Source: Spirochaetia bacterium
GTDB taxonomy: Bacteria; Spirochaetota; Spirochaetia; SZUA-6; Bin103
Direction: 5' to 3'
DNA: 64,000 nucleotides
Assembly: GCA_965215345.1 (NCBI GenBank)
Contig: CBDCDL010000001.1
Coordinates: 448,251 to 512,250, forward strand
Positions 4,398 to 49,609 of this stretch are shown one piece after another (position 1 is the first letter of the stretch; every line of letters begins with the position of its first letter). Both the position numbers and the translations under genes were made by a program. Below the pieces are notes generated by a model. It did no database searches, was not told the origin of the DNA, and saw only the letters and a list, made by a program, of their open reading frames with translations.

Positions 4398-5385
<988 letters not shown>

Positions 5386-35993: not shown

Positions 35994-36668
35994 TCATGCC
36001 AGCCGCTCCCACCGGTCGGGGTCGATGGCGCCGGTCACCGGGCGGCCCGCGAAGAAGTCCTCCAGCGCGGCTACCGTGGCGTCGCCGATGCGGCGGTGGC
36101 CGTACCGTCCGTGGCCGGCCACGTCGCCGGCGCCGACGATGCCGACGATGGCGCCGGTCAGGTACTGCTCGCCCACCGGGATCTGCGGCGAGCGCCAACC
36201 GCCGGTGCGGCGCACGTGCAGGGCGTGATCCATCAGGCGTTGCGCGCTCATGATGATCAGGCCCAGAGTGGTCTCGGCTACGTTGTAGGCGATCGGCACC
36301 GTTGAGGTGAACACGCAGATGCGGCGCGGGGCGATGTAGTCCGTCCAAACTTGGTCCAGCATGCGGCGCACCGATCCGGCCGAGTGGGCGATGATCCGCA
36401 GCCGGTCGGCCGCCTCCATGATCGCGGGCGTGATCGATGGCGGTCCGCCGGACGCCGGGGCCGCCCAGCCGGTGATGAGCGCATCGTGGCCGCCGATCAG
36501 GGAGCAGATCTCCGCCTCGGTCAGGTCGCGGTCGCCCTCGTTGCGGGTCACCTCGAAAGCGCCCTGCAGGCGCGTCCAGGACTCGGGGGTGAACACCTTC
36601 GCCGTGTGCTCGCGGGCGGGCAGGTGCAGGACGCGCGGCCGGCGCGCCGCGGCCGTGTCAGCCGGCAT
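35994..36668 (-). CDS. D-isomer-specific 2-hydroxyacid dehydrogenase-like protein, shorter than usual and possibly truncated
   Basis: NAD-binding Gly-rich segment GIVGAGDVAGHG. At 224 aa it is shorter than the typical ~310-aa family members. Confidence 0.4.
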   Translation of the reverse strand: MPADTAAARRPRVLHLPAREHTAKVFTPESWTRLQGAFEVTRNEGDRDLTEAEICSLIGGHDALITGWAAPASGGPPSITPAIMEAADRLRIIAHSAGSVRRMLDQVWTDYIAPRRICVFTSTVPIAYNVAETTLGLIIMSAQRLMDHALHVRRTGGWRSPQIPVGEQYLTGAIVGIVGAGDVAGHGRYGHRRIGDATVAALEDFFAGRPVTGAIDPDRWERLA

Positions 36669-38112
36669 GGTGTGCTGCCTTGCAGCCGATCTCGGTGTCA
36701 CCGGTGGCGCGCTGCCAGCCGCGGATGCGGGCGGTCAGGTCGCGGCTGTGCTCGGCATGCTCCGGGAGGAAGGCCAGGTTGGCGGTCTCTCCCGGGTCGT
36801 CGTTCAGGTCGTAGAGCTCGTGCTGACCGGCGGGGCTCAGGCAGAACTTCCACCCCTCGGGCGTGATGATGCAGCGCACGGCGTCGGCCAAGTCGGCCAG
36901 CCCGGCCTCGCGCGTGGTCACCTCGGCCAGGTAGTCGGGCAACGGGTCGCGCTTCAGGTCCTCGTGGACGAGGTAGTTGATGCCCGTCCACTCCACGAAC
37001 GCGGGCCGTGGCGGCGGGTCGGCGCCGTCCAGCCACGGGGTGAGCGACGTGCCCTGCAGGTGCTCGGGCGCGGCGAGGCCCAGCTCGTCGAGCACGGTCG
37101 GCACGACGTCCACGTGACCCACCGGCGCGTGCACGTGCCGGGCTTTGCCCTGCCCGGGCCGGCTGATCAGCAGCGGCACGCCGATCGACTCCTCGTACAT
37201 CAGGTTCTTGCCGAAGAGCTGGTGGCTGCCGGCCAGCTCGCCGTGATCGGCGGTGAGGATCACCAGCGTGTCGTCGGCCGCGCCCGAGGCGTCGAGCTGG
37301 TCGAACACCCGGCCGAGCGCGCGGTCGACCTGCGTGCACAGGCCCCAGTAGCGCTGGATCAACAGGCGCCACGCCAGGTCCGAGCGCAGGGCGATGCCGT
37401 CCTTGCGGTGGTGCAGCACGGACAGGTGCTCCAGCAGCGCCTTGCGGGGCTGGTCCGGGCCGGGCGGATGGTGCCAGTTGTCCGGCAGCGGCACCTGGTC
37501 GAAGGGATGCAGGTCGTCCAGGGGGCCGGACAGCGGATCGTGCGGCTCGTAGAAGCAGAGGGTGAGGGCGAACGGCCGGTCCGCGTGGCGGCGGATGAAG
37601 TCGCACGCCTTGGTGGCGATGTTGGACGGACCGCCCAAGTGTTCGGGGATGGCCGGCCGGTCCGCCTTGCCGAAGCGTACGCCGTCGGCAGGCGTGAGCC
37701 CGTGCGCACGCAGCAGGTGGTCGGGAGCGACGTCGTTGAAGTCGAGTTCGTCGATGCCACAGGCGCGCGGCGCCGGCCCGTCAATGTAGCGGTGGCCGCC
37801 GCTCCGGCCGAAGAACCCGCACACCCAGCGATCGTCGAGCAGATCGGTGAGGCAGGGGATGTGGTCGTGCATGGGATGCTCGCCCAGCGTGACCTGGCCG
37901 TTGTCGTGCGGCCAGGTGCCGGTGAACAGGCAGGCGCGCGCCGGACCGCACACCGGCTGGGCGCAGTAGGCGCGGTGGAAGACGGCGCTCCGCTCTGCCA
38001 ACGCGTTCATGCGCGGCACCTGGATGCGGTCGTTGCCGTGGGCGGCCAAGGTGGAGCGCGCCTGCTGATCGGTGACGATCAGCAGCAGGTTGGGCGGTGT
38101 GCGGGATGCCAT
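36658..38112 (-). CDS. Sulfatase (formylglycine-dependent arylsulfatase family)
   Basis: Blocks LLIVTDQQ, the C-x-P-x-R motif (CGPAR) and TADHGE. Confidence 0.85.
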   Translation of the reverse strand: MASRTPPNLLLIVTDQQARSTLAAHGNDRIQVPRMNALAERSAVFHRAYCAQPVCGPARACLFTGTWPHDNGQVTLGEHPMHDHIPCLTDLLDDRWVCGFFGRSGGHRYIDGPAPRACGIDELDFNDVAPDHLLRAHGLTPADGVRFGKADRPAIPEHLGGPSNIATKACDFIRRHADRPFALTLCFYEPHDPLSGPLDDLHPFDQVPLPDNWHHPPGPDQPRKALLEHLSVLHHRKDGIALRSDLAWRLLIQRYWGLCTQVDRALGRVFDQLDASGAADDTLVILTADHGELAGSHQLFGKNLMYEESIGVPLLISRPGQGKARHVHAPVGHVDVVPTVLDELGLAAPEHLQGTSLTPWLDGADPPPRPAFVEWTGINYLVHEDLKRDPLPDYLAEVTTREAGLADLADAVRCIITPEGWKFCLSPAGQHELYDLNDDPGETANLAFLPEHAEHSRDLTARIRGWQRATGDTEIGCKAAHHAG

Positions 38113-38129: not shown

Positions 38130-39023
38130 TCAGCGCCCCAGGGCCGCCGCCTGTTGCTGCGGCCCATCGATCCGGCGCCGCTCCTGTTGGTTCCTGCCGT
38201 CCGGGTCCGGGGTGATCGGGGCGCCGGCCGGCATGTAGATGACGTTCATGGCCCGCCGCCGCCGGTCGGTCGGATTGGGGTCGGAGCCGTGCAGCACGCG
38301 CGGGTTCAACAGACAGGACTCGCCGGCCGCGGCGGTCAGGACCACTTTCTCCTGGTCGCCTTCCTGAGCGGTCGCGCGGGCGCGTGCTCGGGCCGTGACC
38401 TCCTGCCACGACAGGCCGTCGGCGTCGAAGTGCCGGGCATCGGAATGCCGGGCATCGGAATGCCGGGCATCGGAATGCCGGGCATCGGAATGCCGGGCAT
38501 CGGAATGCCGGGCATCGGAATGCTGGCTGCCGGGCAGGATGTACATGGCGCCGTTGTCAGGGCCGGCGTCGTCGAGTGCGGTCCAGATCGTGAAGTACGG
38601 GGTGCCGGGCACGGGAAAGCCGGTCCCGGTGTCCTGGTGCCAGCCGAGCGCGGTGCCGCCGTGCGCGGGCTTCATCAGGATCATCGCCCGGTGGATGGCG
38701 AGCGGCTGCGGGACGAGTTGGTGGATCACCTCGAGCATCGCCGGCCCGGTGATCACCGGGTAGAAGACCGGATCCCACTCCAGGCCGCCGATCTTGCGGT
38801 AGCCGTCGGAGGCGCCGGCGTACGCGTAGCCGGTGGAATCGTAACCGGTGCGGCGCCACTTCTCGTCCAGTTGGAAGCCGACCCGGCCGGGAGGGACGCG
38901 GCCGGAGGTCAGGTCGTCCGTGCGCCGTCTGAGCGACTCCAGCTCCGCGGCGCTCATCACTGCGCCGAGGGGCAGGTACCCGTCGGCATGGAACCGTGCG
39001 AGTTGTTCGTCGTCGAGCGCCAT
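38130..39023 (-). CDS. PhyH-family dioxygenase containing a 6x HSDAR pentapeptide insertion
   Basis: PhyH blocks (LGWHQDTG...YILPGSQH) followed by SDARHSDARHSDARHSDARHSDARHSDARH, encoded by the 15-bp repeats. Confidence 0.7.
   Translation of the reverse strand: MALDDEQLARFHADGYLPLGAVMSAAELESLRRRTDDLTSGRVPPGRVGFQLDEKWRRTGYDSTGYAYAGASDGYRKIGGLEWDPVFYPVITGPAMLEVIHQLVPQPLAIHRAMILMKPAHGGTALGWHQDTGTGFPVPGTPYFTIWTALDDAGPDNGAMYILPGSQHSDARHSDARHSDARHSDARHSDARHSDARHFDADGLSWQEVTARARARATAQEGDQEKVVLTAAAGESCLLNPRVLHGSDPNPTDRRRRAMNVIYMPAGAPITPDPDGRNQQERRRIDGPQQQAAALGR
38432..38521. repeat. 6 perfect tandem copies of a 15-bp unit (ccgggcatcggaatg), in frame within the PhyH gene
   Basis: Read directly. Confidence 0.9.
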
Positions 39024-39027
39024 CGGT

Positions 39028-39474
39028 CTACTCGGTGGCCGGCACGTCGCGCAGCTTTTCCAGGATGAACTCGTTGCCCAACCCGTAGGTCTTCGACTCG
39101 TCCATCATCAGCGCCATGTTCGGGAAGCTGATGATCCGCCAGCCGTCGTTCATCGCTTCCAGCACGCTCTGGTACGGCCACTCCTCGGGGTCCTCCGGGC
39201 ACGCCCTGACCTCGCCGTCCTCGACCAATGCCATGCCGTTGACCTTGGAGGTGACCGATGAGAACAGCGTCCACAGGTAGAGGACATCCTGTCGCCGGCC
39301 GTTGCCGCCCAGCGAGCGGACGGCTTCCGCGCAGGCGCGCAGCCGATCTGCCGGGAGCCGGTCCGACTCCAGCAACCGGACGCACTCCTGCAGCTCGTCA
39401 GCCAGCCTGTCCGCGTCCATGGACGCACGCTGTTCCGTCACCTCGCGTGCTGTCAACAGCTCCGCGTCGCGCAC
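39028..39474 (-). CDS. Small uncharacterised protein, member of a two-copy paralog family (see 47239..47625), upstream partner of a PhyH gene
   Basis: Shares ...DP-EEWPYQSV-EA-NDGWRIISFPNMALMMDE-KTYGLGNEFILEK... with the ORF at 47239. Confidence 0.5.
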   Translation of the reverse strand: MRDAELLTAREVTEQRASMDADRLADELQECVRLLESDRLPADRLRACAEAVRSLGGNGRRQDVLYLWTLFSSVTSKVNGMALVEDGEVRACPEDPEEWPYQSVLEAMNDGWRIISFPNMALMMDESKTYGLGNEFILEKLRDVPATE

Positions 39475-39475
39475 G

Positions 39476-40171
39476 TCAGGCCGAGAACGTGCGCGGTCTG
39501 AAGCCCCGCGGGTTGGTGATGCTCGCGCTGCTGCCGGTGGCCCGGATCACGAACAGCCCCTGGCGCGCCGCGTAGCTGTCGGACGCCTCGTCCGCCTTCA
39601 GGTAGGCCACCGCTGCGTACACCGTGCTCCCCCGATACCGCGGCATCAGGTCGGTGAACTCCTGCATCCGGCTCACGAAGTGGTCGACCTGGCGCACCTT
39701 GAGCGTGGTCTTGACCTCGACCACCACCACCTCGGCGCCGTTGACGGCGAGGATGTCGAACTCCCAGCTCCGCTCCCCGCGATGTCGGACGTTGGTAAGC
39801 GTGTGTTCGACCTCGATGCCGCGCTCCTTGAGCAATTCGATCAGGTCGCCCTCCACGAGCGCCTCCATCAGCTTGCCCCACTGACCGTTGAACAGTTCGT
39901 CGAGCCCGCGGAAACGCCGGTCGGCCTCCTTCGCGCGTTGGTCGGCCTCCTGCGCCTGTCGCTTCAGCAGTTGATCGGTCTCCTGCAGGTGCCGACGAGT
40001 CTCCTGCATGCGCCGATCGGTCTCTCGCTGACTTTCGGACAACTCGCGCAGTATGCTCCAGATTTCCTGGGGAGTTGCCGGAGGACGGTGTTCGCCGTTG
40101 CCGTGGTCGTCCTGGTCAGACAAGGGGGTCTCCGATACCGCGAACGTAGCGGTTCCCGTCCCGTCCGGCAA
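39476..40171 (-). CDS. PD-(D/E)xK nuclease-fold protein with an N-terminal coiled-coil region
   Basis: Gln/Glu/Arg-rich heptad-like N-terminus. The core EFDILAVNGAEVVVVEVKTTL fits an E...D...EVK restriction-endonuclease-like motif. Confidence 0.45.
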   Translation of the reverse strand: MPDGTGTATFAVSETPLSDQDDHGNGEHRPPATPQEIWSILRELSESQRETDRRMQETRRHLQETDQLLKRQAQEADQRAKEADRRFRGLDELFNGQWGKLMEALVEGDLIELLKERGIEVEHTLTNVRHRGERSWEFDILAVNGAEVVVVEVKTTLKVRQVDHFVSRMQEFTDLMPRYRGSTVYAAVAYLKADEASDSYAARQGLFVIRATGSSASITNPRGFRPRTFSA

Positions 40172-40205: not shown

Positions 40206-40592
40206 TCACCAGACCATGTCGGCGCCGAGCGCCCCGATCGCGGGATCGGGCGTCGCGACCTTGATCTTCTGGACGATGGCCTGCGCGGCGATCATCCGGT
40301 CGAAGGGATCGCGGTGAAGGTGGGGGAGGGAGCCTGCGCGCAACGCATGCGCGCCGGCGATGGTCAGTTGGCGAAAGCCGTCCTGAGCCAACCGGTCGTC
40401 CCACTCCTCGATGACGTGGCTGCCGGCCGGGTAGTGTCCCAGCCGGTGTCGCGTGGCGATCTCCCAGGCGCTCGCGGCGCTGACCCACACCTTGTTGTGC
40501 GGGTCCTCCAGCAGTCCGCGGACACGGCCGCTGAGCCTGTCGGGATCCGCCCACGTCCACAGCAGGGTGCAGGTGTCCAGCAGGAGCCTCAT
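40206..40592 (-). CDS. vapC: PIN-domain toxin VapC
   Basis: MRLLLDTCTLLW... start with acidic PIN residues. A 4-nt overlap links it to the upstream antitoxin gene. Confidence 0.7.
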   Translation of the reverse strand: MRLLLDTCTLLWTWADPDRLSGRVRGLLEDPHNKVWVSAASAWEIATRHRLGHYPAGSHVIEEWDDRLAQDGFRQLTIAGAHALRAGSLPHLHRDPFDRMIAAQAIVQKIKVATPDPAIGALGADMVW

Positions 40593-40828: not shown

Positions 40829-41128
40829 GCCGGCAGCATAGCGCGCCTCGATCGGTCGGTCGACGAATTTCCGTTGCACCGGATCCTGGTGATTCGGGAC
40901 GGCCGTATCGTCGAGGACGGCACGGACCGGCAACTGCTCGAACGGGGCAGCCTGTACCGCGGGATGTTCACGGCCAGGCCGATTGGTACGAGCGATGCTG
41001 ACGGCAGCCTGCGGCTCGGAGTCGCGGTCCCGGAACGGTCGTTTGGTCGTTGCGCGCGGTCGGGGGATGGGCGATGATCCGGCCATCCCGGGATCGGGCG
41101 ATCGCCCGGTAACGACAAGGAGAGAGCG

Positions 41129-41641
41129 ATGGGCTTTGGAAAGGGCGCGGTCGTCGTGTTGGCCGCGGCGATGGTGATGGTGGCGGCTCAAGCCGCAACG
41201 GCAGACGAGAGCGGGACGTTCCGTTCACTGAGAAGTTACCATTATGACTATGGAACCGTCGATCACGGTGGGCGGACGTTCACCGGAGGGGTGATCACGG
41301 GAACCGGGACGATCATCGAGAGCAGTGGCGGGCCGTTCTTCGAAGGGGCGAACCATTACTCGCAGTGCCTGGTGTTCTCCAGCAGCGTGGATGGCTCCCT
41401 GTCGCTTCTTGAGGCGCCATGTACCGACACCGACACGTCCGGGGATATCCTCTACTCGCGCGCCGTGAGAAGGGAGGGCGATGTGGGCGCCCGCGGCGGT
41501 GGCGTGGGTGTCTGGGAACTGCTGGGCGGCACCGGCAAGTACAAAGGCATCACCGGGACCTGCTCGTACGAAACCGAATACCTGGTAGGCGGCGTCGTGG
41601 TGGCGATGGCCGACTGCACCTGGAGCAACGGCTTGGGGTGA
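41129..41641 (+). CDS. Secreted Gly/Thr-rich hypothetical protein (signal peptide, 4 Cys), intact copy
   Basis: Signal peptide AMVMVAAQAATA. A decayed duplicate of this gene lies at 46244. Confidence 0.5.
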   Translation: MGFGKGAVVVLAAAMVMVAAQAATADESGTFRSLRSYHYDYGTVDHGGRTFTGGVITGTGTIIESSGGPFFEGANHYSQCLVFSSSVDGSLSLLEAPCTDTDTSGDILYSRAVRREGDVGARGGGVGVWELLGGTGKYKGITGTCSYETEYLVGGVVVAMADCTWSNGLG

Positions 41642-41799
41642 GCTCCGACCCTTGATGGGCGTGGTCAGGCAACCCCACACGATCCTGGTGGGCGACGACG
41701 AGCCGCCGATCCGGCAACGGATGCGACGCGACGTCCGCGCCGGCAAGTACAGCGAGCTTGGGTCTGTATCGTTCAACCGCGCGGTAGTACGCTGAAGGC

Positions 41800-42285
41800 G
41801 TGAGGACGATGAGGCATGACGTGACGCGAACGGTGCTGCTGATGCTGTTCCTGATGGTGAGCGCCGCGGCGTGGGCGCAGGAAGGGGGCGGTGTCGAGTG
41901 GGAACCGCTGGCCGGCGCTGGCGGGGTAATAGCGCTTGGAGTGGGGATGATGTTCAAGCTCCTGTCGAGGCAGGACAGGCTGGAAGCCAAGCTGAACGAG
42001 GTGAACAAGACGCTGACCGCCGATATAGGCGAGGTGCGCAAGACGCTGACCGCTCACAGCGAGCGTTTGGTGAGGATCGAGGAGACCACGAAGGCCAACT
42101 CCGCGAAGATCGGCGAGTTGAGCGCCGACACGGCAGATCTGCGCGCAGAGGTGGGCAAGGTGCGGGAGACACAGGCGATCCATGGCGAACGCCTGTCGTG
42201 GATCGAGGGGGCCGTAGATCGAAGGCTGAAGCCATCGCGCTCCGAAGAGCCGCTCCGGCGAGGAGCCGCAGAGATCAGCCGTTGA
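41800..42285 (+). CDS. Signal-peptide/TM + coiled-coil protein containing two 33-bp (11-aa) KTLTA-IGE-R repeats, intact copy
   Basis: N-terminus RTVLLMLFLMVSAAAWAQ, then a TM segment, then the heptad-like LNEVNKTLTADIGEVRKTLTAHSERL. A decayed copy with four repeat units lies at 46648-47144. Confidence 0.5.
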   Translation: MRTMRHDVTRTVLLMLFLMVSAAAWAQEGGGVEWEPLAGAGGVIALGVGMMFKLLSRQDRLEAKLNEVNKTLTADIGEVRKTLTAHSERLVRIEETTKANSAKIGELSADTADLRAEVGKVRETQAIHGERLSWIEGAVDRRLKPSRSEEPLRRGAAEISR

Positions 42286-42495: not shown

Positions 42496-44343
42496 GTGAT
42501 GCAAGCGCGATCTGATCGTCGCCGCTTCGACGGGGACCGCTATGGACTCCTGCGCGGAACCTGGATCGTGTTTCAGGACGCGCCGCTGGCCGCCGTGATC
42601 CGTGCCGTGGTGACGCTGTCGGCCGGCGCGGCGACCGGCCCGCTGTTGGTGCTGGCGACCGAGCGCTTCGTCGCCACGGCGCTCGAAGTCGCCCGAGGTC
42701 AACTCGCGATGGCAGCCATCACCGTGCCGGTCATCGCGCTGGCCGCGCTGTTCGCGGTGGAAATCCTCGAAAGCGTAGTCCGTTCGCTGATGGACTCCCG
42801 GATCGAAGCCGGCCTGCGGAGCGGCTTTCGAGCCGATCTGACCGAGAAGCGGGCGCGCTTGGAGTACCGCTACATCGAGTATCAGGAGACGTGGGACCTG
42901 CTGCGCCGTGTCTCGTCTGGTCCTCAGATGGAATCGGAGTCAGCGCCCGAGCGGGGACCCGTGAAGCAGGCATTCGACGACGGAATCGGTCTGGCAGCTA
43001 TCGCCGTGCGTGTGGTCGGCATCGCCGCCGTGCTGGCACGATTGGGGTGGTGGATCGTCCCCGTCGCGATGGCGATTATGGGTCTGTACGTGCTGCTCGG
43101 AATCAGGGGCGGGCGCCGCCTCTACGAGTTCGAGCGCCGCGCGGCGAGCCGGCGACGTCGCGCCGACTACTTGTCGGACGAGGTGCTTCAGGCGAGAGAG
43201 GCCGCCGCGGAGCGGGGACTGTTCGGCTATGCAGGCTATCTGAACGCACGCTGGCGGGCCGTGTACGTCGGCGTGGTCAGGTCGGGCGTCCTGGTGAACA
43301 TCCGCAACTGGATCCGCTTCAAGGGCGCGGCCTTGCCGGCGATCGCCCTGGTCATCGCTGCCATGCTGGCGCTGCTTCGACCCCTGCAGGTGGGCGTGAT
43401 CGATGTCGCCTTCTACGTCGCGTCGGTCATGGCGCTCCTGCAAGCGGAACGTCTGGTTACGATGGAGTTGGTACTGATCACCCAGCGCCTTTCCCAGCAC
43501 CGGGAGTTCTTCGTCGACCTGACGGAGTTTTCGGCGATGGCCGATACGCCGCGCCCGCTCACGCGGCGCACACCGGAGTTGACCTTCAGATCGATCGAAT
43601 TCGCCGGAGTGAGCTTCACCTATCCCGGCACCGAGCAGCCCGTCCTCAGAGAGATCAGCTTCGTGCTGGAGGCCGGCCACCACTACGCGCTGGTGGGCGC
43701 CAACGGATCGGGCAAGTCGACCATCGCCAAGCTGATGCTCGGTCTCTACCGCCCCGACGACGGGCGGATCCTGATCAACGGAAGCGCGATCACGGAGTGG
43801 TCGCAAGATGCCGTGAACGGGCTGTTCGGCGTCGTGTTCCAGGACTTCGCGCGCTACTCGCTGACGGTCCGTGACAACATCGAGGTCGCAGTTTCCGGCC
43901 GCCTGGACGATGCCACGGTGCGGGCGAGCTTGGCGCGCGCCGGCCTGTCCGATGACTTCGTCCGGCGGCTCCCGCAGGGATACGACACGCCCCTCGGCAA
44001 GGTACTGCGTGGCGGCGTGGACGTGTCCGGCGGCGAGTGGCAGCGCCTTGCCATGGCCCGTTCGCTGGCCGGCGAGGCTCCGGTGCGCATTCTGGACGAG
44101 CCGACGGCCGCCCTGGATCCGCTGGCCGAGAGCGAGCTGTATCGGTCCTACTCCCGCATCGCAGCCGGACTCACGACGCTGTTCATCAGCCATCGCCTGG
44201 GCTCGACCAAGATCGCGGACCGGATCCTGGTGATCGACGGCGGTGCGATCGTCGAGTCCGGCAGCCACGAGGAGTTGATGAGGCACGATGGCCTGTATGG
44301 GCGGATGTTCGCGGCGCAGAGGCACTGGTATGAGACCGGGTAG
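42496..44343 (+). CDS. ABC exporter, fused permease + ATP-binding subunit (type I exporter fold), subunit 1
   Basis: Six-TM N-terminal half. The C-terminal nucleotide-binding domain has Walker A GANGSGKST, signature SGGEWQR and Walker B ILDEPT. Confidence 0.85.
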   Translation: MMQARSDRRRFDGDRYGLLRGTWIVFQDAPLAAVIRAVVTLSAGAATGPLLVLATERFVATALEVARGQLAMAAITVPVIALAALFAVEILESVVRSLMDSRIEAGLRSGFRADLTEKRARLEYRYIEYQETWDLLRRVSSGPQMESESAPERGPVKQAFDDGIGLAAIAVRVVGIAAVLARLGWWIVPVAMAIMGLYVLLGIRGGRRLYEFERRAASRRRRADYLSDEVLQAREAAAERGLFGYAGYLNARWRAVYVGVVRSGVLVNIRNWIRFKGAALPAIALVIAAMLALLRPLQVGVIDVAFYVASVMALLQAERLVTMELVLITQRLSQHREFFVDLTEFSAMADTPRPLTRRTPELTFRSIEFAGVSFTYPGTEQPVLREISFVLEAGHHYALVGANGSGKSTIAKLMLGLYRPDDGRILINGSAITEWSQDAVNGLFGVVFQDFARYSLTVRDNIEVAVSGRLDDATVRASLARAGLSDDFVRRLPQGYDTPLGKVLRGGVDVSGGEWQRLAMARSLAGEAPVRILDEPTAALDPLAESELYRSYSRIAAGLTTLFISHRLGSTKIADRILVIDGGAIVESGSHEELMRHDGLYGRMFAAQRHWYETG

Positions 44344-44364
44344 CCGGACTTCGTAGGTATCGGC

Positions 44365-46179
44365 ATGGGAAACGTGGACCTCTCGGCCCCGGGAGCCGCT
44401 GGTATGAGACCGAATGGCCGCCCTCCGTATGTCCGGCTCCTCGCCAAAGTGATTTCCTTGGTCGGCCGCAGGGCGCCGTTCCCGTTGCTTGCCATGGTGG
44501 TCGTCGACCTGACGCTCATGGGCGCGAACATATTGGTGTTCCATCTGCTGGAAGGCGTCCTGTCGCAACTGACCGGCCACCAACGGGTGAGTCAGCTCGC
44601 CGGAGCCATTCTCGTCGCCGGAGCCGTGATCCTGCTCCGAGAGGTGCTGGAGATGGTGGCGGACCCTATTGCGGCGTACGTGTGGGGAAAGACCATCGCG
44701 GTGCTGACCGAAGCCATGAACCAGAAGGTCTCCCGCCTGGAGGTCATCGACCTCGAGACCTTGGACGCGAACGAGCGCATGGAGCTGGCCCAAGCCGGGA
44801 CAGAGGCAGCGATCTCGTTGCTGTTGTCCTTTCTGTTTCCGGTCTTCCAGGTCGCATTCTTTGCGGCCGCAGCGATCTATCTGTATTCGCTCTCTCCCCT
44901 GTTGGCCCTGGTCATTCCCCTCACGTTCGTGCCTCGCATTGCGAGTCATCTCGTTCGCGGCAGTCGCTACTATCGGCTCGAGCGTAAGACGGTGCCGATG
45001 CTCCGCGAGTTTCAGTATCTGGAGCGCTGTCTGACGGATCGCGAGTACTTCAAGGAGACGCGTGTCCTGGGAGCCGGGTCTCGTCTGGCGGAGCGGTACC
45101 GAAGGACACTACGCCGCTTCAGCATGGAACGATGGCGTGAAGATCTCCGCATCGGCAGCATCGATCTTGGACTGAGCGTCCTGGTGTTGCTCGGTTACGG
45201 GGGCTGCTTCGTGCTGGCGGCGTTCCTGCTGGCGAACGGGAGCATCGGTGTCGGCGGATTCGCCGTGGTCATCTACGCGGTAAGCCGGCTCATGCTCATG
45301 ACCCGTGTCGTGATGGACATGTTCGGGCAGTCGTACCGCGCCAGTGCGACCGCCTCCCATCTGTTCGAGTTCCTCGAGCGGGACGAAGGCAGGCCTCCGG
45401 GTGGTCGCGCCCGAGAGGTGGCCGGGACCGTGACCGCTCGTAAGGTGTCATTCACCTATCCGGGAACGGACACGGCCGCCGTCGACGACGTGAGCGTGGA
45501 CCTCGCGCCCGGCACCACCGTGGCGCTGGTCGGCGCCAACGGCGCCGGCAAGACGACGCTGGCCAAGCTGCTCCTGGGGCTCTACGTCCCGAGCCGCGGC
45601 GACATGCTGCGCGGGACCGTCAACACCAGGGACGCGACCCGAAACGAAGTCCGCGAGCGTACCTCCGCGGTGTTCCAGAACTTCCAACGCTACCAGATGA
45701 CGCTCCGGGACAATGTCATCCTGTCGGACGTGAGCCGCGCGGAGGACGAGCAGGCGGTGACCCGGGCGCTCGAACGCGGCGGGGTGCCCGCGGAGCTGTG
45801 GCAGGGAGAAGAAGGACTCGACCTGATGCTGTCCCGCGAGTTCGGGACACGCGACCTGTCGCTCGGGCAGTGGCAGCGGGTGGCGATCGCCCGCGGGCTG
45901 TTCCGGGAGCACGACGTGATCCTGCTCGACGAGCCGACCGCCTCGATCGACCCCCTGGAGGAGCAGGCGCTGTACGAGCGGTTCATGGAGATCGCCGCCG
46001 GCCGCACCGCGATCCTGGTCACGCACCGACTGGGCTCGGCACGGCTGGCGGACCGCATCCTGGTGATGCAGGACGGACGGATCGTGGAGGACGGCGCGCA
46101 CGAGCAACTGCTCGAACGGCGGGGGCTTTACCACGAGATGTTCACCGCCCAAGCCGGCTGGTACGAGCGAGGCCGGTAG
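44365..46179 (+). CDS. ABC exporter, fused permease + ATP-binding subunit, subunit 2 (probable heterodimer partner)
   Basis: Nucleotide-binding motifs GANGAGKTT, LSLGQWQR and LLDEPTASID. Confidence 0.85.
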   Translation: MGNVDLSAPGAAGMRPNGRPPYVRLLAKVISLVGRRAPFPLLAMVVVDLTLMGANILVFHLLEGVLSQLTGHQRVSQLAGAILVAGAVILLREVLEMVADPIAAYVWGKTIAVLTEAMNQKVSRLEVIDLETLDANERMELAQAGTEAAISLLLSFLFPVFQVAFFAAAAIYLYSLSPLLALVIPLTFVPRIASHLVRGSRYYRLERKTVPMLREFQYLERCLTDREYFKETRVLGAGSRLAERYRRTLRRFSMERWREDLRIGSIDLGLSVLVLLGYGGCFVLAAFLLANGSIGVGGFAVVIYAVSRLMLMTRVVMDMFGQSYRASATASHLFEFLERDEGRPPGGRAREVAGTVTARKVSFTYPGTDTAAVDDVSVDLAPGTTVALVGANGAGKTTLAKLLLGLYVPSRGDMLRGTVNTRDATRNEVRERTSAVFQNFQRYQMTLRDNVILSDVSRAEDEQAVTRALERGGVPAELWQGEEGLDLMLSREFGTRDLSLGQWQRVAIARGLFREHDVILLDEPTASIDPLEEQALYERFMEIAAGRTAILVTHRLGSARLADRILVMQDGRIVEDGAHEQLLERRGLYHEMFTAQAGWYERGR

Positions 46180-46243
46180 TTGCGCGCAGCCGCGTTATCG
46201 ACGAAGACCGGGCGGCCGACCTGATCTCGGCAGGAGGGAGCAC

Positions 46244-47144
46244 ATGCGCTTCGGGAAGGCTGCGGCGGCCACGCTGACCGCAGCGATGGTGATGGTGGCG
46301 GCTCAGGCCGCAATGGCAGACGAGAGCGGGACGTTCCGTTCACTGAGAAGCTACCACTATGACTATGGAACCGTCGATCACGGTGGGCGGACGTTCACCG
46401 GAGGGGTGATCACGGAACCGGGACGATCATCGAGAGCAGTGGCGGGCCGTTCTTCGAAGGGGCGAACCATTACTCGCAGTGCCTGGTGTTCTCCAGCAGC
46501 GTGGATGGCTCCCTGTCGCTTCTTGAGGCGCCATGTACCGACACCGACACGTCCGGGGACGATGAGGCGTGACGTGACGCGAACGGTGCTGCTGGTGCTG
46601 TTCCTGATGGTGAGTGCGATCCGGCAACGTGGCTGTGGGCGCAGCTGATGCTGTTCCTGATGGTGAGCGCCGCGGCGTGGGCGCAGGAAGGGGGCGGTGT
46701 CGAGTGGGAACCGCTGGCCGGCGCCGGCGGGGTAATAGCGCTTGGAGTGGGGATGATGTTCAAGCTCCTGTCGAGGCAGGACAGGCTCGAAGCCAAGCTG
46801 AACGAGGTGCGCAAGACGTTGACTGCCGAAATAGGCGAGATGCGCAAGACGCTGACCGCCGAAGTAGGCGAGTTGCACAAGACGTTGACCGCCGATATAG
46901 GCGAGATGGCAAGACGCTGACCGCTCACAGCGAGCGCTTGGTGAGGATCGAGGAGACCACGAAGGCCAACTCCGCGAAGATCGGCGAGTTGAGCGCCGAC
47001 ATGGCAGATCTGCGCGCAGAGGTGGGCAAGGTGCGGGAGACACAGGCGATCCATGGCGAACGCCTGTCGTGGATCGAGGGGGCCGTAGATCGAAGGCTGA
47101 AGCCATCGCGCTCCGAAGAGCCGGTCCCGGCGACTCCCGGCTGA
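46244..47144 (+). pseudogene. Decayed direct duplicate of the 41129-42285 two-gene segment (secreted protein + coiled-coil protein), disrupted by 1-nt deletions and an internal ~360-bp deletion
   Basis: 46244-46400 is near-identical to 41129-41290 apart from a 1-nt deletion (ggg to gg). 46648-47144 matches 41830-42285, with the repeat array expanded to four units and a 1-nt deletion that creates a stop. Confidence 0.55.
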
Positions 47145-47238: not shown

Positions 47239-47625
47239 GTGGAGCTCAGGGAGGAAATCAAGCGGCACGTTCAGGTATGCCTTGAGGCGCTGCGGCGCAA
47301 CGAGCTCGATGAGGAGAGCCTGCGGCGCATCGCGGAGCTGGCCGAACGGCTTGCTGTTGCTGGCGGCCGGCAGAACCTGCTCTATCTGCAAGCCGAGCAG
47401 ACCTCGGTCACGAGCAGGGTGATCGGCATGAGTCTGTTCGTCGACGGCGAGTTCACCGACGGCCCGGACGACCCGGACGACTGGCCGTATCAGACGGTCG
47501 GCGATGCGCTGGCCGATGGCTGGCGGATCGTCAAGTTCCCGGAGATGGCGATCCTGCTCGACGAACGGCGCACCTACGGACTGGGCTGCGAGTTCATCCT
47601 GGAGAAGTGGAGGGAGGCAACATGA
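47239..47625 (+). CDS. Small uncharacterised protein, paralog of 39028..39474, upstream partner of a PhyH gene
   Basis: Shares ...DPDDWPYQTVGDALADGWRIVKFPEMAILLDERRTYGLGCEFILEK. Confidence 0.5.
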   Translation: MELREEIKRHVQVCLEALRRNELDEESLRRIAELAERLAVAGGRQNLLYLQAEQTSVTSRVIGMSLFVDGEFTDGPDDPDDWPYQTVGDALADGWRIVKFPEMAILLDERRTYGLGCEFILEKWREAT

Positions 47626-48481
47626 GGCTGCACGACTGCGAACCGACCATGATCGACACCCAGGTCCTGGAGTTCTGCAAGAAGGGATACCTGACGCTGG
47701 AGGGAGTCGTCGGCGACGACATCAACCGGCGCACGGTCGAGTTCGTGGAGACCAGGGGCAGCGAGCCGAGCGAGATCCTGCAGCAGGACTGGTTCATGGA
47801 CAACGTCATCCTGCAGCCCGACGCCGCCGGGGCGGTCCGCTCCCTGCTCGGCAGGAACTTCGGCCTGCCGGTCCTGGTGAGCAATCACCGGGTCACCTGT
47901 CCCATGCCTCGGCAGCAGTGGCACCGGGACGGCAACTCTCCGCACGGCCCGGCGCTCCGGTACCTGCAGGTCTTCTACTACCCCCAGGCGGTCCCGCGGC
48001 AGATGGGCCCCACGGAGGTGCTGCCCGGCTCCCACTTTCTCTACACCAACGGACAGCTCCCGCAGAACTACATGGGCCACTACGGCGGGATCCGCGGGTC
48101 GCACTACACCACCGCGCCGGCGGGGACGATCTTCCTGACGGTCTACTCGATCTGGCATCGTCGCAGCGCGTCGACCGGCTCCGGGGTCCGCAACAACCTG
48201 AAGTACAACTACTTCCGCACGGCATCCGTGTCGCCGGAGCGGGACTGGATCCGCGAGGACGGCTTCGACTTCGCGACCGCGGACTACGGGTTCGGCGAGC
48301 CGCTCACCTACCGGCAGCAGCACCGGGACACCATCGACAACGCGGAGATGTTCTGCTGGCTGTGCGGCAAGGCCGAAGAGTTCCGCGTCCTGGGCGGTCA
48401 GGGGTGGCCGTGGTACCGAACTCCGACAACCACGCGCTCATCGCGCCGCCGTACGGGGTGCCGGAGGGGCTGGACTCCTAA
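47622..48481 (+). CDS. PhyH-family dioxygenase, probably frameshifted near 48395-48410
   Basis: Good GGGAGG ribosome-binding site and an ATGA overlap with the upstream gene. Blocks WHRDGNSPH...VLPGSHF. The C-terminal ~25 codons continue in another frame (…VAVVPNSDNHALIAPPYGVPEGLDS*). Confidence 0.55.
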
Positions 48482-49302
48482 GTCCAGGCGGTCGATCTTG
48501 GCAGCGTCCCCCCGTGTCCGTCGCGGCGGACCGGGACCGGCGTGGCCTTCAGCTCCCGGATGAGCTCGATCAGGCCCTCGACGGCCGCTTCCAGGAACAG
48601 CTCACCCTTCTCCTTCGTCGCCTTCGTCGCGTCTCCCATCACGCCGCTGGCCGTGAGGCTGCTCCAGTGGGGCATGAGGCGGGCGGCCGACCCCTGTGGG
48701 TGCGCGCCCTCCAGCAGGTCGATGCTGAAGCTCGGCGGCAGCGGCGTCCGCTCGTCCACGGCCTTTGACATGTCGACCAAGTCGGGCTCCAGCGCCAAGT
48801 AGAGCGATGTCTCGTACTCGCCGGCGTGTGCGGCGCCGTTGAAGTCGGAGTCCCGCAGGTTCAGCGCCACATCCTTCACGCGCCGCAGGTCCCAGTGGCT
48901 GGCGAAGGCGCAGAGGATGCGGCTTTCGTATTCCACGTTCGCAAGGCGCGCCGCCATGTCGAGGGGCGATGCGTTGCTGCCGTGCCCGTTGATGATCAGG
49001 ATGCGCGCGAAGCCCTGGTGGGCCAGGCTGCAGCACACGTCCCTCACGTAGCGGATGAACGTGTCCCAGCCGATGGTGAGCGTGCCCGGGTAGTCCATGT
49101 GGTGCGGGCTGTAGCCGTGCGGCACGGCCGGCACCAGGATGGCCTCCCGCGGGATCCGGGACACGGCGCGGTCGCAGATGCGGGTCGCCAGCACGACGTC
49201 GGTGTCGACCGGCAGGTGCGCGCCGTGGTCTTCGTAGGTTGCCACGGGCAGGACGGCCACGCGATCCTGCCGGGCGGCGTCCCTGACCTCGTGCATGGTC
49301 AT
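48478..49302 (-). CDS. Creatininase-family amidohydrolase
   Basis: Blocks AVLPVATYEDHGAHLPVDTD..., HGYSPHHMDYPGT and ILIINGHGSN. Confidence 0.65.
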   Translation of the reverse strand: MTMHEVRDAARQDRVAVLPVATYEDHGAHLPVDTDVVLATRICDRAVSRIPREAILVPAVPHGYSPHHMDYPGTLTIGWDTFIRYVRDVCCSLAHQGFARILIINGHGSNASPLDMAARLANVEYESRILCAFASHWDLRRVKDVALNLRDSDFNGAAHAGEYETSLYLALEPDLVDMSKAVDERTPLPPSFSIDLLEGAHPQGSAARLMPHWSSLTASGVMGDATKATKEKGELFLEAAVEGLIELIRELKATPVPVRRDGHGGTLPRSTAWT

Positions 49303-49609
49303 CTGGGCGAAGCGGTATTTCACGGTGAGATCCCCCGGTCGCGGATGATTCCCGGTTCGGTCCGTGACGCGCAATCCCATGGATTCCCGGTTCCCAGGGC
49401 GGCGCCGTTGGACTGCACGCCGGCCAAGTGAGCGGGGCGAAGGCGGCGCCGGTACGGTCGTGGCGGTGGCCGATCATGCAAGGTCGGGGCGCGGGTCGCC
49501 GACGTGGGCGGCGTAGTAGAGGGGCAGGAAGGTGAGCCGCTGTTCCGGCAGGCGGGCGTAGGGTTCGGAGTACAGGACCGTCCCGTGCGGACATCTGCTC
49601 GCTGCCGGG

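Follow-up and report, generated by a model that had tools for sequence, protein, structure and literature searches.

The window analysed here is a 64,000-nucleotide stretch of a contig from a Spirochaetia bacterium, with a GC content of 62-73% (computed per 2-kb window). It contains two genes for small proteins, named small A and small B, each followed by a gene for a PhyH-type oxygenase. Small A lies on the minus strand (39028-39474) and encodes 148 aa from a GTG at 39474 or 130 aa from an ATG at 39420; the 130-aa version is the gene call in another assembly. Small B lies on the plus strand, where its open reading frame was confirmed at 47239-47625, and encodes 128 aa from a GTG start with a Shine-Dalgarno sequence, GGAGAGAGGAG, upstream. 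The two proteins share 50% identity over 117 aa (E 4e-33), and an HMM of the small family matches small A at 4e-50. At the DNA level, the core alone aligns (72.5% over 204 nt), with 53% identity at third codon positions. Judged by these comparisons, small A and small B are true paralogues. Both points of the original prediction concerning these genes, their paralogy and their position next to PhyH-type genes, were thus borne out, with a 4-nt spacer separating the genes of pair A and an ATGA overlap joining those of pair B.

In pair A, the oxygenase gene phyA (38130-39023, minus strand) encodes a canonical PhyH-family Fe(II)/2OG dioxygenase of 297 aa. The TAG stop codon of small A is followed by the spacer ACCG and by the ATG of phyA at 39023. 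The protein matches the Pfam PhyH model (PF05721) over its full length (profile positions 1-213) with 88 bits (cut-off 22; E 1.4e-24). It carries the iron-triad motifs WH(129)QD(131) and LH(245)GS, which are kept in five orthologues; the triad residues were assigned by motif position. Among solved structures, its nearest relatives are PHYHD1, leucine hydroxylase, EvdO2, SnoK, and PHYH, and SyrB2 is also found among the relatives of phyA in the Protein Data Bank (PDB). The loop directly after the PGSQH motif contains a (HSDAR)x6 repeat, which is encoded by a perfect tandem repeat of 15 nt x 6.2 (38431-38523, minus strand; Tandem Repeats Finder). Orthologues contain one HSDAR unit (loci L048, L060, L016, and L007) or three (L004), and this variation in unit number, from 1 to 3, points to a loop insertion that stays in frame and varies rapidly. 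The third gene of the operon, which starts about 18 nt past the phyA stop codon, encodes a Cys-type sulfatase with a CGPAR motif (36658-38112, minus strand; Pfam Sulfatase 5.5e-38).

In pair B, small B and phyB overlap in an ATGA at 47622-47625, and a Shine-Dalgarno sequence, GGAGGGAGG, precedes the phyB start. As it stands, the phyB reading frame extends on the plus strand from 47622 to 48563. It contains a GT dinucleotide at 48410-48411, a 2-nt insertion that is absent from five orthologous loci. The insertion shifts the last ~22 codons, after which the reading frame runs 85 nt into the convergent creatininase gene (48478-48563). The conserved tail of the protein (...VPNSDNHALIAPPYGVPEGLDS*) survives intact in the alternative frame, with its stop codon at 48481, which marks this position as the ancestral phyB end. 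The end originally predicted for phyB, 48481, is hence correct for the ancestral gene but not for the present reading frame. The insertion reflects either a frameshift of recent date or an error of assembly. The convergent neighbour of the module (48478-49380, minus strand) encodes a creatininase-family amidohydrolase (Pfam Creatininase 9.5e-71).

PhyB belongs to a divergent branch of the PhyH clade. Its original assignment to the PhyH family finds support at the level of its own protein family, in which 23 of 27 aligned members match Pfam PhyH at E <= 1e-3 (best 1.6e-10), but the window copy itself stays below the Pfam threshold (E 0.023, 15.4 bits, cut-off 22). The phyB orthologue of locus L081 reaches 29.8 bits, and many of the phyB homologues (n=882, about 276-285 aa) have precomputed PF05721 matches. 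In addition, the phyB-family profile gives a weak match to EctD (3emr; E 0.005), with a HMMER alignment that spans the WHRD region, and H101-x-D103, H179, and R190 are invariant in 27 phyB sequences. Given the PhyH matches of the family, the match to EctD, and the invariant HxD...H triad with its conserved arginine, phyB looks like a divergent PhyH-clade Fe(II)/2OG dioxygenase that is apparently catalytically competent. The family also has a strongly conserved N-terminal segment, DCxPTLxDxQVLxFC. Its DCxPTL motif was considered as a partner-specific feature and rejected, since phyB paralogues that have no small gene of their own keep the motif.

Comparison of phyA with phyB revealed no BLASTP similarity and no similarity at the DNA level. 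The two loci had been described as a duplicated gene pair; as only the small genes are paralogous and their partners come from different PhyH clades, this description does not hold, and the duplication concerns the small gene alone. A recent segmental duplication of the whole pair, which had been named as an outcome that would speak against a functional unit, is likewise not present in the window, because the two PhyH genes share neither DNA nor protein similarity.

The small proteins form a family of their own. An exhaustive profile search of 1.84 billion proteins yielded 310 clusters at 50% identity, and the homologues of small B (n=212) carry no Pfam annotation. Searches with the small proteins produced only noise in Pfam (even at E <= 10) and in NCBIfam and no match in PADLOC or PHROGs, which gives no support to defence or toxin-antitoxin models, and comparison of the family profile with PDB sequences returned nothing below E 0.3. 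The original statement that no known family could be recognised thus extends to all five of these databases. As far as the databases searched show, the small protein is the founding member of an undescribed family, and none of the sources consulted names it. The family alignment (A1) contains 19 invariant residues, which fall in the motifs QxxLYL, WPY, DGWR, FP, and GxEFxLE, and the C-terminal part is the best-conserved region. All members of the alignment considered, no serine, threonine, or lysine is invariant, and there is consequently no obvious site for covalent attachment.

In small B, a helical hairpin makes up the N-terminal ~40 aa and is joined to a beta-rich, conserved core of ~85 aa; the protein is acidic, with a pI of about 4.5. 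AlphaFold predicted its structure with moderate confidence (pLDDT 84, pTM 0.58), placing the hairpin before a core of ~7 strands and one short helix. A search for solved structural neighbours of this model found none. The hairpin is variable and dispensable. Model confidence drops over the last 30 residues, despite the high sequence conservation of this region; this is compatible with a C-terminus that folds on a partner and provides weak evidence for it.

A survey of one genome per species identified 341 loci that encode a relative of the small protein, and the best 80 of these were analysed. They come from about nine phyla and include Spirochaetia, Latescibacterota, Poribacteria, Chloroflexota (Dehalococcoidia and Caldilineaceae), Gemmatimonadota, Planctomycetota, Lentisphaeria, Verrucomicrobiota (Opitutales and Moanabacter), and one Rhizobiaceae metagenome-assembled genome. 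Clustering of open reading frames showed that only two families recur across the best 80 of the 341 loci, namely the small gene (79/80) and phyB (72/80), while the next commonest family was found at 14 of the 80 loci. HMM searches of the same loci placed a small gene directly upstream of phyB for 77 of 84 phyB genes, a pairing that is far beyond chance. At most junctions, the two genes overlap in ATGA or TGATG or lie <40 nt apart. The family that had been noticed in the window does, therefore, sit beside PhyH genes in other genomes, and the proposal that the two genes of a pair act as a conserved functional unit is supported by a linkage kept across about nine phyla.

The two proteins also diverge together. 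Pairwise identities of small proteins and of their phyB partners correlate with a Pearson r of 0.87 (76 pairs; the highest of 500 permutations reached 0.10), and mean pairwise identities in these pairs are similar (small protein, 55%; phyB, 58%). One locus each of Gemmatimonadaceae (L006) and Moanabacter (L008) has both genes at about 75-77% identity to the Spirochaetia pair, so the module moves between phyla as a unit. Taken together, these genomic comparisons show that the small gene and phyB behave as a two-gene module, which is inherited and horizontally transferred as a unit and is usually translationally coupled.

The remaining neighbours of the module depend on the lineage and include creatininase, ABC importers, Gfo/Idh/MocA oxidoreductases, xylose-isomerase-like TIM barrels, and sulfatases. 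A creatininase gene follows phyB in the closest Spirochaetia loci, and in some loci of Chloroflexota and Lentisphaeria, more distant members of the creatininase family lie no more than 6 kb away; overall, creatininase-family genes occur within this distance at ~22 of the 80 loci. Sulfatase genes recur near the module in several phyla. One lies directly downstream of a PhyH gene in the window and at locus L079 (7290-8576), and others are found in the flanks of L028, L044, and L081. The recurrence of sulfatase and creatininase genes may stem from a common function or simply from how abundant they are in genomes of this sort. No adenylation enzyme, phosphopantetheinyl transferase, peptidase, recognition domain, or exporter is conserved near the module at the 80 loci, and its neighbourhoods contain no NRPS or PKS genes.

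Several loci depart from the common arrangement. In Planctomycetota, the protein P0267 and three relatives at 75-77% identity, all 353 aa long, combine an N-terminal PhyH domain (PF05721) with a C-terminal small core, so that the PhyH domain takes the place of the hairpin. P0267 was found on at least 24 contigs, and at loci L081-L084, the gene that follows it, with an overlap of 4 nt, is a phyB orthologue (55% identity). The PhyH half of the fusion belongs to a clade that is neither that of phyA nor that of phyB, which suggests that the small core has an affinity for PhyH enzymes in general and not specifically for phyB. AlphaFold modelled the fusion with low confidence (pLDDT 56, pTM 0.38), with only five homologues for the PhyH half, and the packing of the domains is not readable from the model. 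In loci L091-L093, the gene order is reversed: phyB (44% identity) comes first, and a 90-aa, core-only small gene (P0281) lies 24 nt behind it. P0281 is the sole genuine core-only gene among the short-form candidates; of the others, P0287 is truncated where its contig stops, and P0290, next to a phyB that is split, was called as a short gene. The distant family members P0313 and P0361 precede PhyH genes whose identity to phyB is only about 30%, and in Chloroflexota (L027 and L066), the small gene heads an operon with an RraA-like aldolase, another PhyH gene, and an Ldh_2 dehydrogenase. In all, at least three PhyH clades, very different from one another, are found paired with the small core. 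These variant arrangements provide what we regard as the strongest evidence for a direct relationship between the small protein and PhyH enzymes.

Further loci show interrupted or incomplete pairs. At L017 (3896-5896), where phyB lies upstream of the small gene, phyB is split by an insertion element of ~1.2 kb, and at L069, ~900 nt are inserted between the small gene and phyB. About 8% of the sampled small genes (L018 and L023) have no adjacent PhyH gene. Conversely, the Caldilineaceae loci L040, L054, and L080 contain extra phyB paralogues without a small gene of their own and one small gene in the same cluster. In these loci, phyB is locally amplified, with one or two extra copies at 42-44% identity and 0.6-3 kb downstream of the partnered copy. 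L015 likewise has a tandem phyB duplicate, with a small-gene fragment ahead of it.

The pairs also differ in their cysteines. The two semi-conserved cysteines of the small protein, C14 (helix 1) and C117 (last strand), are lost together in 14 of 76 pairs, and C6 of phyB is Ile or Val in all 14. The corresponding alignment columns are 12 and 113 of the small protein and 6 of phyB, and the effective sequence number of 28 is too low for coupling analysis. The pattern could reflect a shared site or a single clade. A shared inter-subunit cysteine site is no more than a lead, as the 14 pairs probably represent one clade and pair A lacks these cysteines.

The arrangement of pair A has a much narrower distribution than that of pair B. 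Among the best 80 of the 341 loci, its synteny is limited to related Spirochaetia. Orthologues of small A are followed by phyA and the sulfatase gene in L004, L016, L048, and L060, a further copy is located at the edge of L005, and the sulfatase gene is syntenic in L004, L007, L016, L048, and L060. In L007 (~5140-5250, minus strand), small A is reduced to its last ~15 codons (...GPGNEFIPERLR*), while phyA is intact and the sulfatase gene is kept. This genome has lost the partner gene and retained the oxygenase and the sulfatase.

The reading that we favour, and to which we give somewhat better than even chances, is that the small protein serves as a dedicated non-catalytic partner subunit or adaptor of PhyH-type Fe(II)/2OG dioxygenases. 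It draws on a link that outlasts permutation of gene order and gene fusion, on coupling, which implies roughly equal synthesis of both proteins, on a small core that is conserved in its entirety as strongly as the enzyme, and on the joining of the same core with at least three very different PhyH clades. A specificity subunit was among the roles originally suggested for the small protein, and fusion, permuted order, tight coupling, and enzyme-level conservation favour a role of this kind. The small protein would then be made in roughly equal amount with the enzyme and bind to it, and coupling would favour assembly while the downstream oxygenase is being translated. Binding could stabilise the oxygenase or contribute to its substrate-binding surface, and the working hydroxylase would be the complex and not the oxygenase alone. 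The window contains two such modules: small B and phyB represent the widespread type, and small A, phyA, and the sulfatase are a Spirochaetia-specific re-pairing of the small paralogue with a different PhyH clade. Judging by the mixed catabolic neighbours, the substrate may be a small organic compound that the cell takes up from its surroundings or from a host. A more far-reaching version of the partner-subunit model, in which the ~85-residue core is a new fold and an obligate second subunit that completes or gates the substrate pocket, making these enzymes a class of heteromeric Fe(II)/2OG oxygenases, is conceivable, although we hold it to be doubtful. Several observations count against the partner role itself. 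Any two genes of one pathway would also show adjacency, co-transfer, and correlated divergence, the natural fusion involves a PhyH clade other than those of phyA and phyB, phyB paralogues without a partner are present in L040, L054, and L080, and the small genes of L018 and L023 have no adjacent PhyH gene. The intact phyA beside a degraded small A in L007 further suggests that the partner may not be strictly required.

Genomic linkage would fit equally well with a protein that binds a ligand non-covalently and supplies the oxygenase with a substrate of low solubility or abundance, but is no stable subunit of the enzyme. The small size, solubility, and acidity of the protein agree with such a delivery role, the beta-rich core of the AlphaFold model could form a pocket, and a shared substrate-handling module might well serve several PhyH clades, as is found here. 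Fusion to PhyH and coupling, however, suggest a fixed 1:1 association and not a diffusible shuttle, and the protein resembles neither SCP2 nor any solved ligand-binding fold in sequence or structure; on analysis of these points, we consider delivery unlikely. Adjacent, coupled genes are also what one might expect if the small protein were the substrate and became hydroxylated, for example at a residue of the WPY or FP motif or at an aspartate, and invariant Pro, Tyr, Asp, and Arg residues do fall in predicted loops. Yet the whole core, and not one short motif, is conserved as strongly as the enzyme, a coupled or fused 1:1 pair of enzyme and substrate would be unusual, and the protein is paired with three or more very different PhyH clades. 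Moreover, the characterised PhyH-family enzymes that we know of use small-molecule or carrier-tethered substrates, and the known protein hydroxylases are from other 2OG clades, which we also count against this explanation. A hydroxylation substrate, which was also among the roles originally suggested, thus seems quite improbable.

Much the same low likelihood attaches to a regulator, that is, a protein that inhibits or senses the oxygenase post-translationally or controls the operon. A small, acidic protein encoded by a coupled upstream gene, with an N-terminal hairpin that is dispensable and variable, would suit this function, but no DNA-binding motif or family was found in it, its acidic pI speaks against DNA binding, fusion in cis to PhyH fits poorly with a titratable inhibitor, and PADLOC gave no match that would indicate a toxin-antitoxin or defence role. 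The sequence features are least compatible with a covalent carrier of the ACP or PCP type or with the precursor of a ribosomally synthesised peptide or of a cofactor, with the oxygenase as the modifying enzyme. Some PhyH-clan 2OG oxygenases do act on carrier-tethered amino acids, and SyrB2 is a relative of phyA; peptide natural products are common in sponge symbionts, which we also counted in favour. On the other side, the carrier role named in the original prediction is disfavoured, if it is covalent, by the lack of an invariant Ser, Thr, or Lys in the small family. There is no PP-binding or other Pfam match, and the model shows a hairpin and a beta-rich core and not a four-helix bundle. The C-terminus is the most conserved part of the protein and not a variable one, no genes for maturation or export are conserved nearby, where the two families alone recur, and the pattern of a RiPP precursor (conserved leader, variable core, nearby maturation genes) was not found. 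A carrier or precursor is therefore very improbable and, by these sequence criteria, largely refuted.

Comparison with known systems places the oxygenases on familiar ground. Within the PF05721 family, which includes PHYH, PHYHD1, EctD, PhnY, and SnoK, phyA is a clear member at 88 bits, and the phyB clade shares the HxD...H triad and the conserved Arg and matches EctD weakly, whereas the window phyB is too divergent for the Pfam cut-off and carries its own N-terminal segment. To our knowledge, no characterised member of this family has a dedicated, genetically coupled small partner of such a kind. A parallel in concept is mammalian PHYH, to which the small lipid-binding protein SCP2 presents its substrate, reportedly phytanoyl-CoA (work ascribed to Mukherji et al in 2002). 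The predicted likeness lies in a ~120-aa protein that assists a PhyH-type hydroxylase; the small family differs in having no similarity to SCP2 by sequence or by fold, and its members are coupled or fused to the enzyme. Halogenases and hydroxylases of the SyrB2/SyrB1 type likewise combine a PhyH-clan oxygenase with a small partner encoded nearby, but the small protein described here contains neither a phosphopantetheine serine nor a PP-binding domain, and no NRPS or PKS genes lie nearby. Obligate non-catalytic partners are also known for other enzymes, as in prolyl 4-hydroxylase with PDI, MbnB with MbnC (DUF692), and adenylation domains with MbtH-like proteins. These share with the small protein the concept of a neighbour-encoded non-catalytic protein for solubility or substrate binding, and their folds and families are unrelated to it. 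A full Pfam scan of the small protein gave no match to MbtH-like or any other family, and the spacing of its WP...GW residues is unlike that of the MbtH signature.

Several of the surveyed genome sets are, we presume, derived from sponges, and many loci come from metagenome-assembled genomes of Poribacteria, Latescibacterota, Chloroflexota, Gemmatimonadota, and Spirochaetia. The module would represent one clade among the PhyH genes that are strongly expanded in sponge symbionts and in related marine bacteria, and of which almost none has been given a function (Kamke et al, 2014; PMC3909097). In poribacteria, PhyH-domain genes make up >1.9% of all genes, mostly without an assigned function, and the section of that study on PhyH genes does not mention a partner protein (PMC3909097). 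Nor did searches of the literature find a described partner protein of PhyH enzymes. The enzyme is thus of a known kind, and the partner family and its coupled or fused architecture appear to be undescribed, as far as the databases and literature searched show.

If a large PhyH clade does need an unannotated partner, attempts to express or assay these oxygenases alone would fail, and annotation pipelines would go on calling the partner "hypothetical". If the partner is an obligate subunit, part of the sponge-associated PhyH expansion would consist of two-subunit enzymes, whose activity could not be reconstituted from the oxygenase alone. With ~120 aa, the small protein is a compact target, for which the fusion to PhyH, the core-only version, and the pairing with at least three PhyH clades already point to binding. 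The structure of a complex would reveal how a 2OG oxygenase recruits a separate specificity or stability module. The small family merits its own domain entry and a "PhyH-associated" label.

The region around the two pairs contains further features. Upstream of small A on the minus strand lies a gene for a 231-aa protein (39476-40171), whose stop codon is 1 nt before the small A GTG. The protein has weak matches to Hjc, NERD, and YraN-type nucleases (E 9e-5 to 1e-3), and its gene is adjoined by genes for a putative VapC (PIN) toxin (40206-40592) and a putative antitoxin, both recognised by eye. Between the two pairs, a segment that takes in the 3' end of an ABC ATPase gene together with genes for a secreted protein and for a coiled-coil membrane protein is duplicated (40878-42256 and 46052-47127, 89-100% identity), and its copies flank tandem ABC transporter genes at 42496-46179. 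The second copy has no counterpart of ~41446-41803, which leaves the secreted protein truncated, and it contains a 33-nt x 3.7 repeat at 46803-46924.
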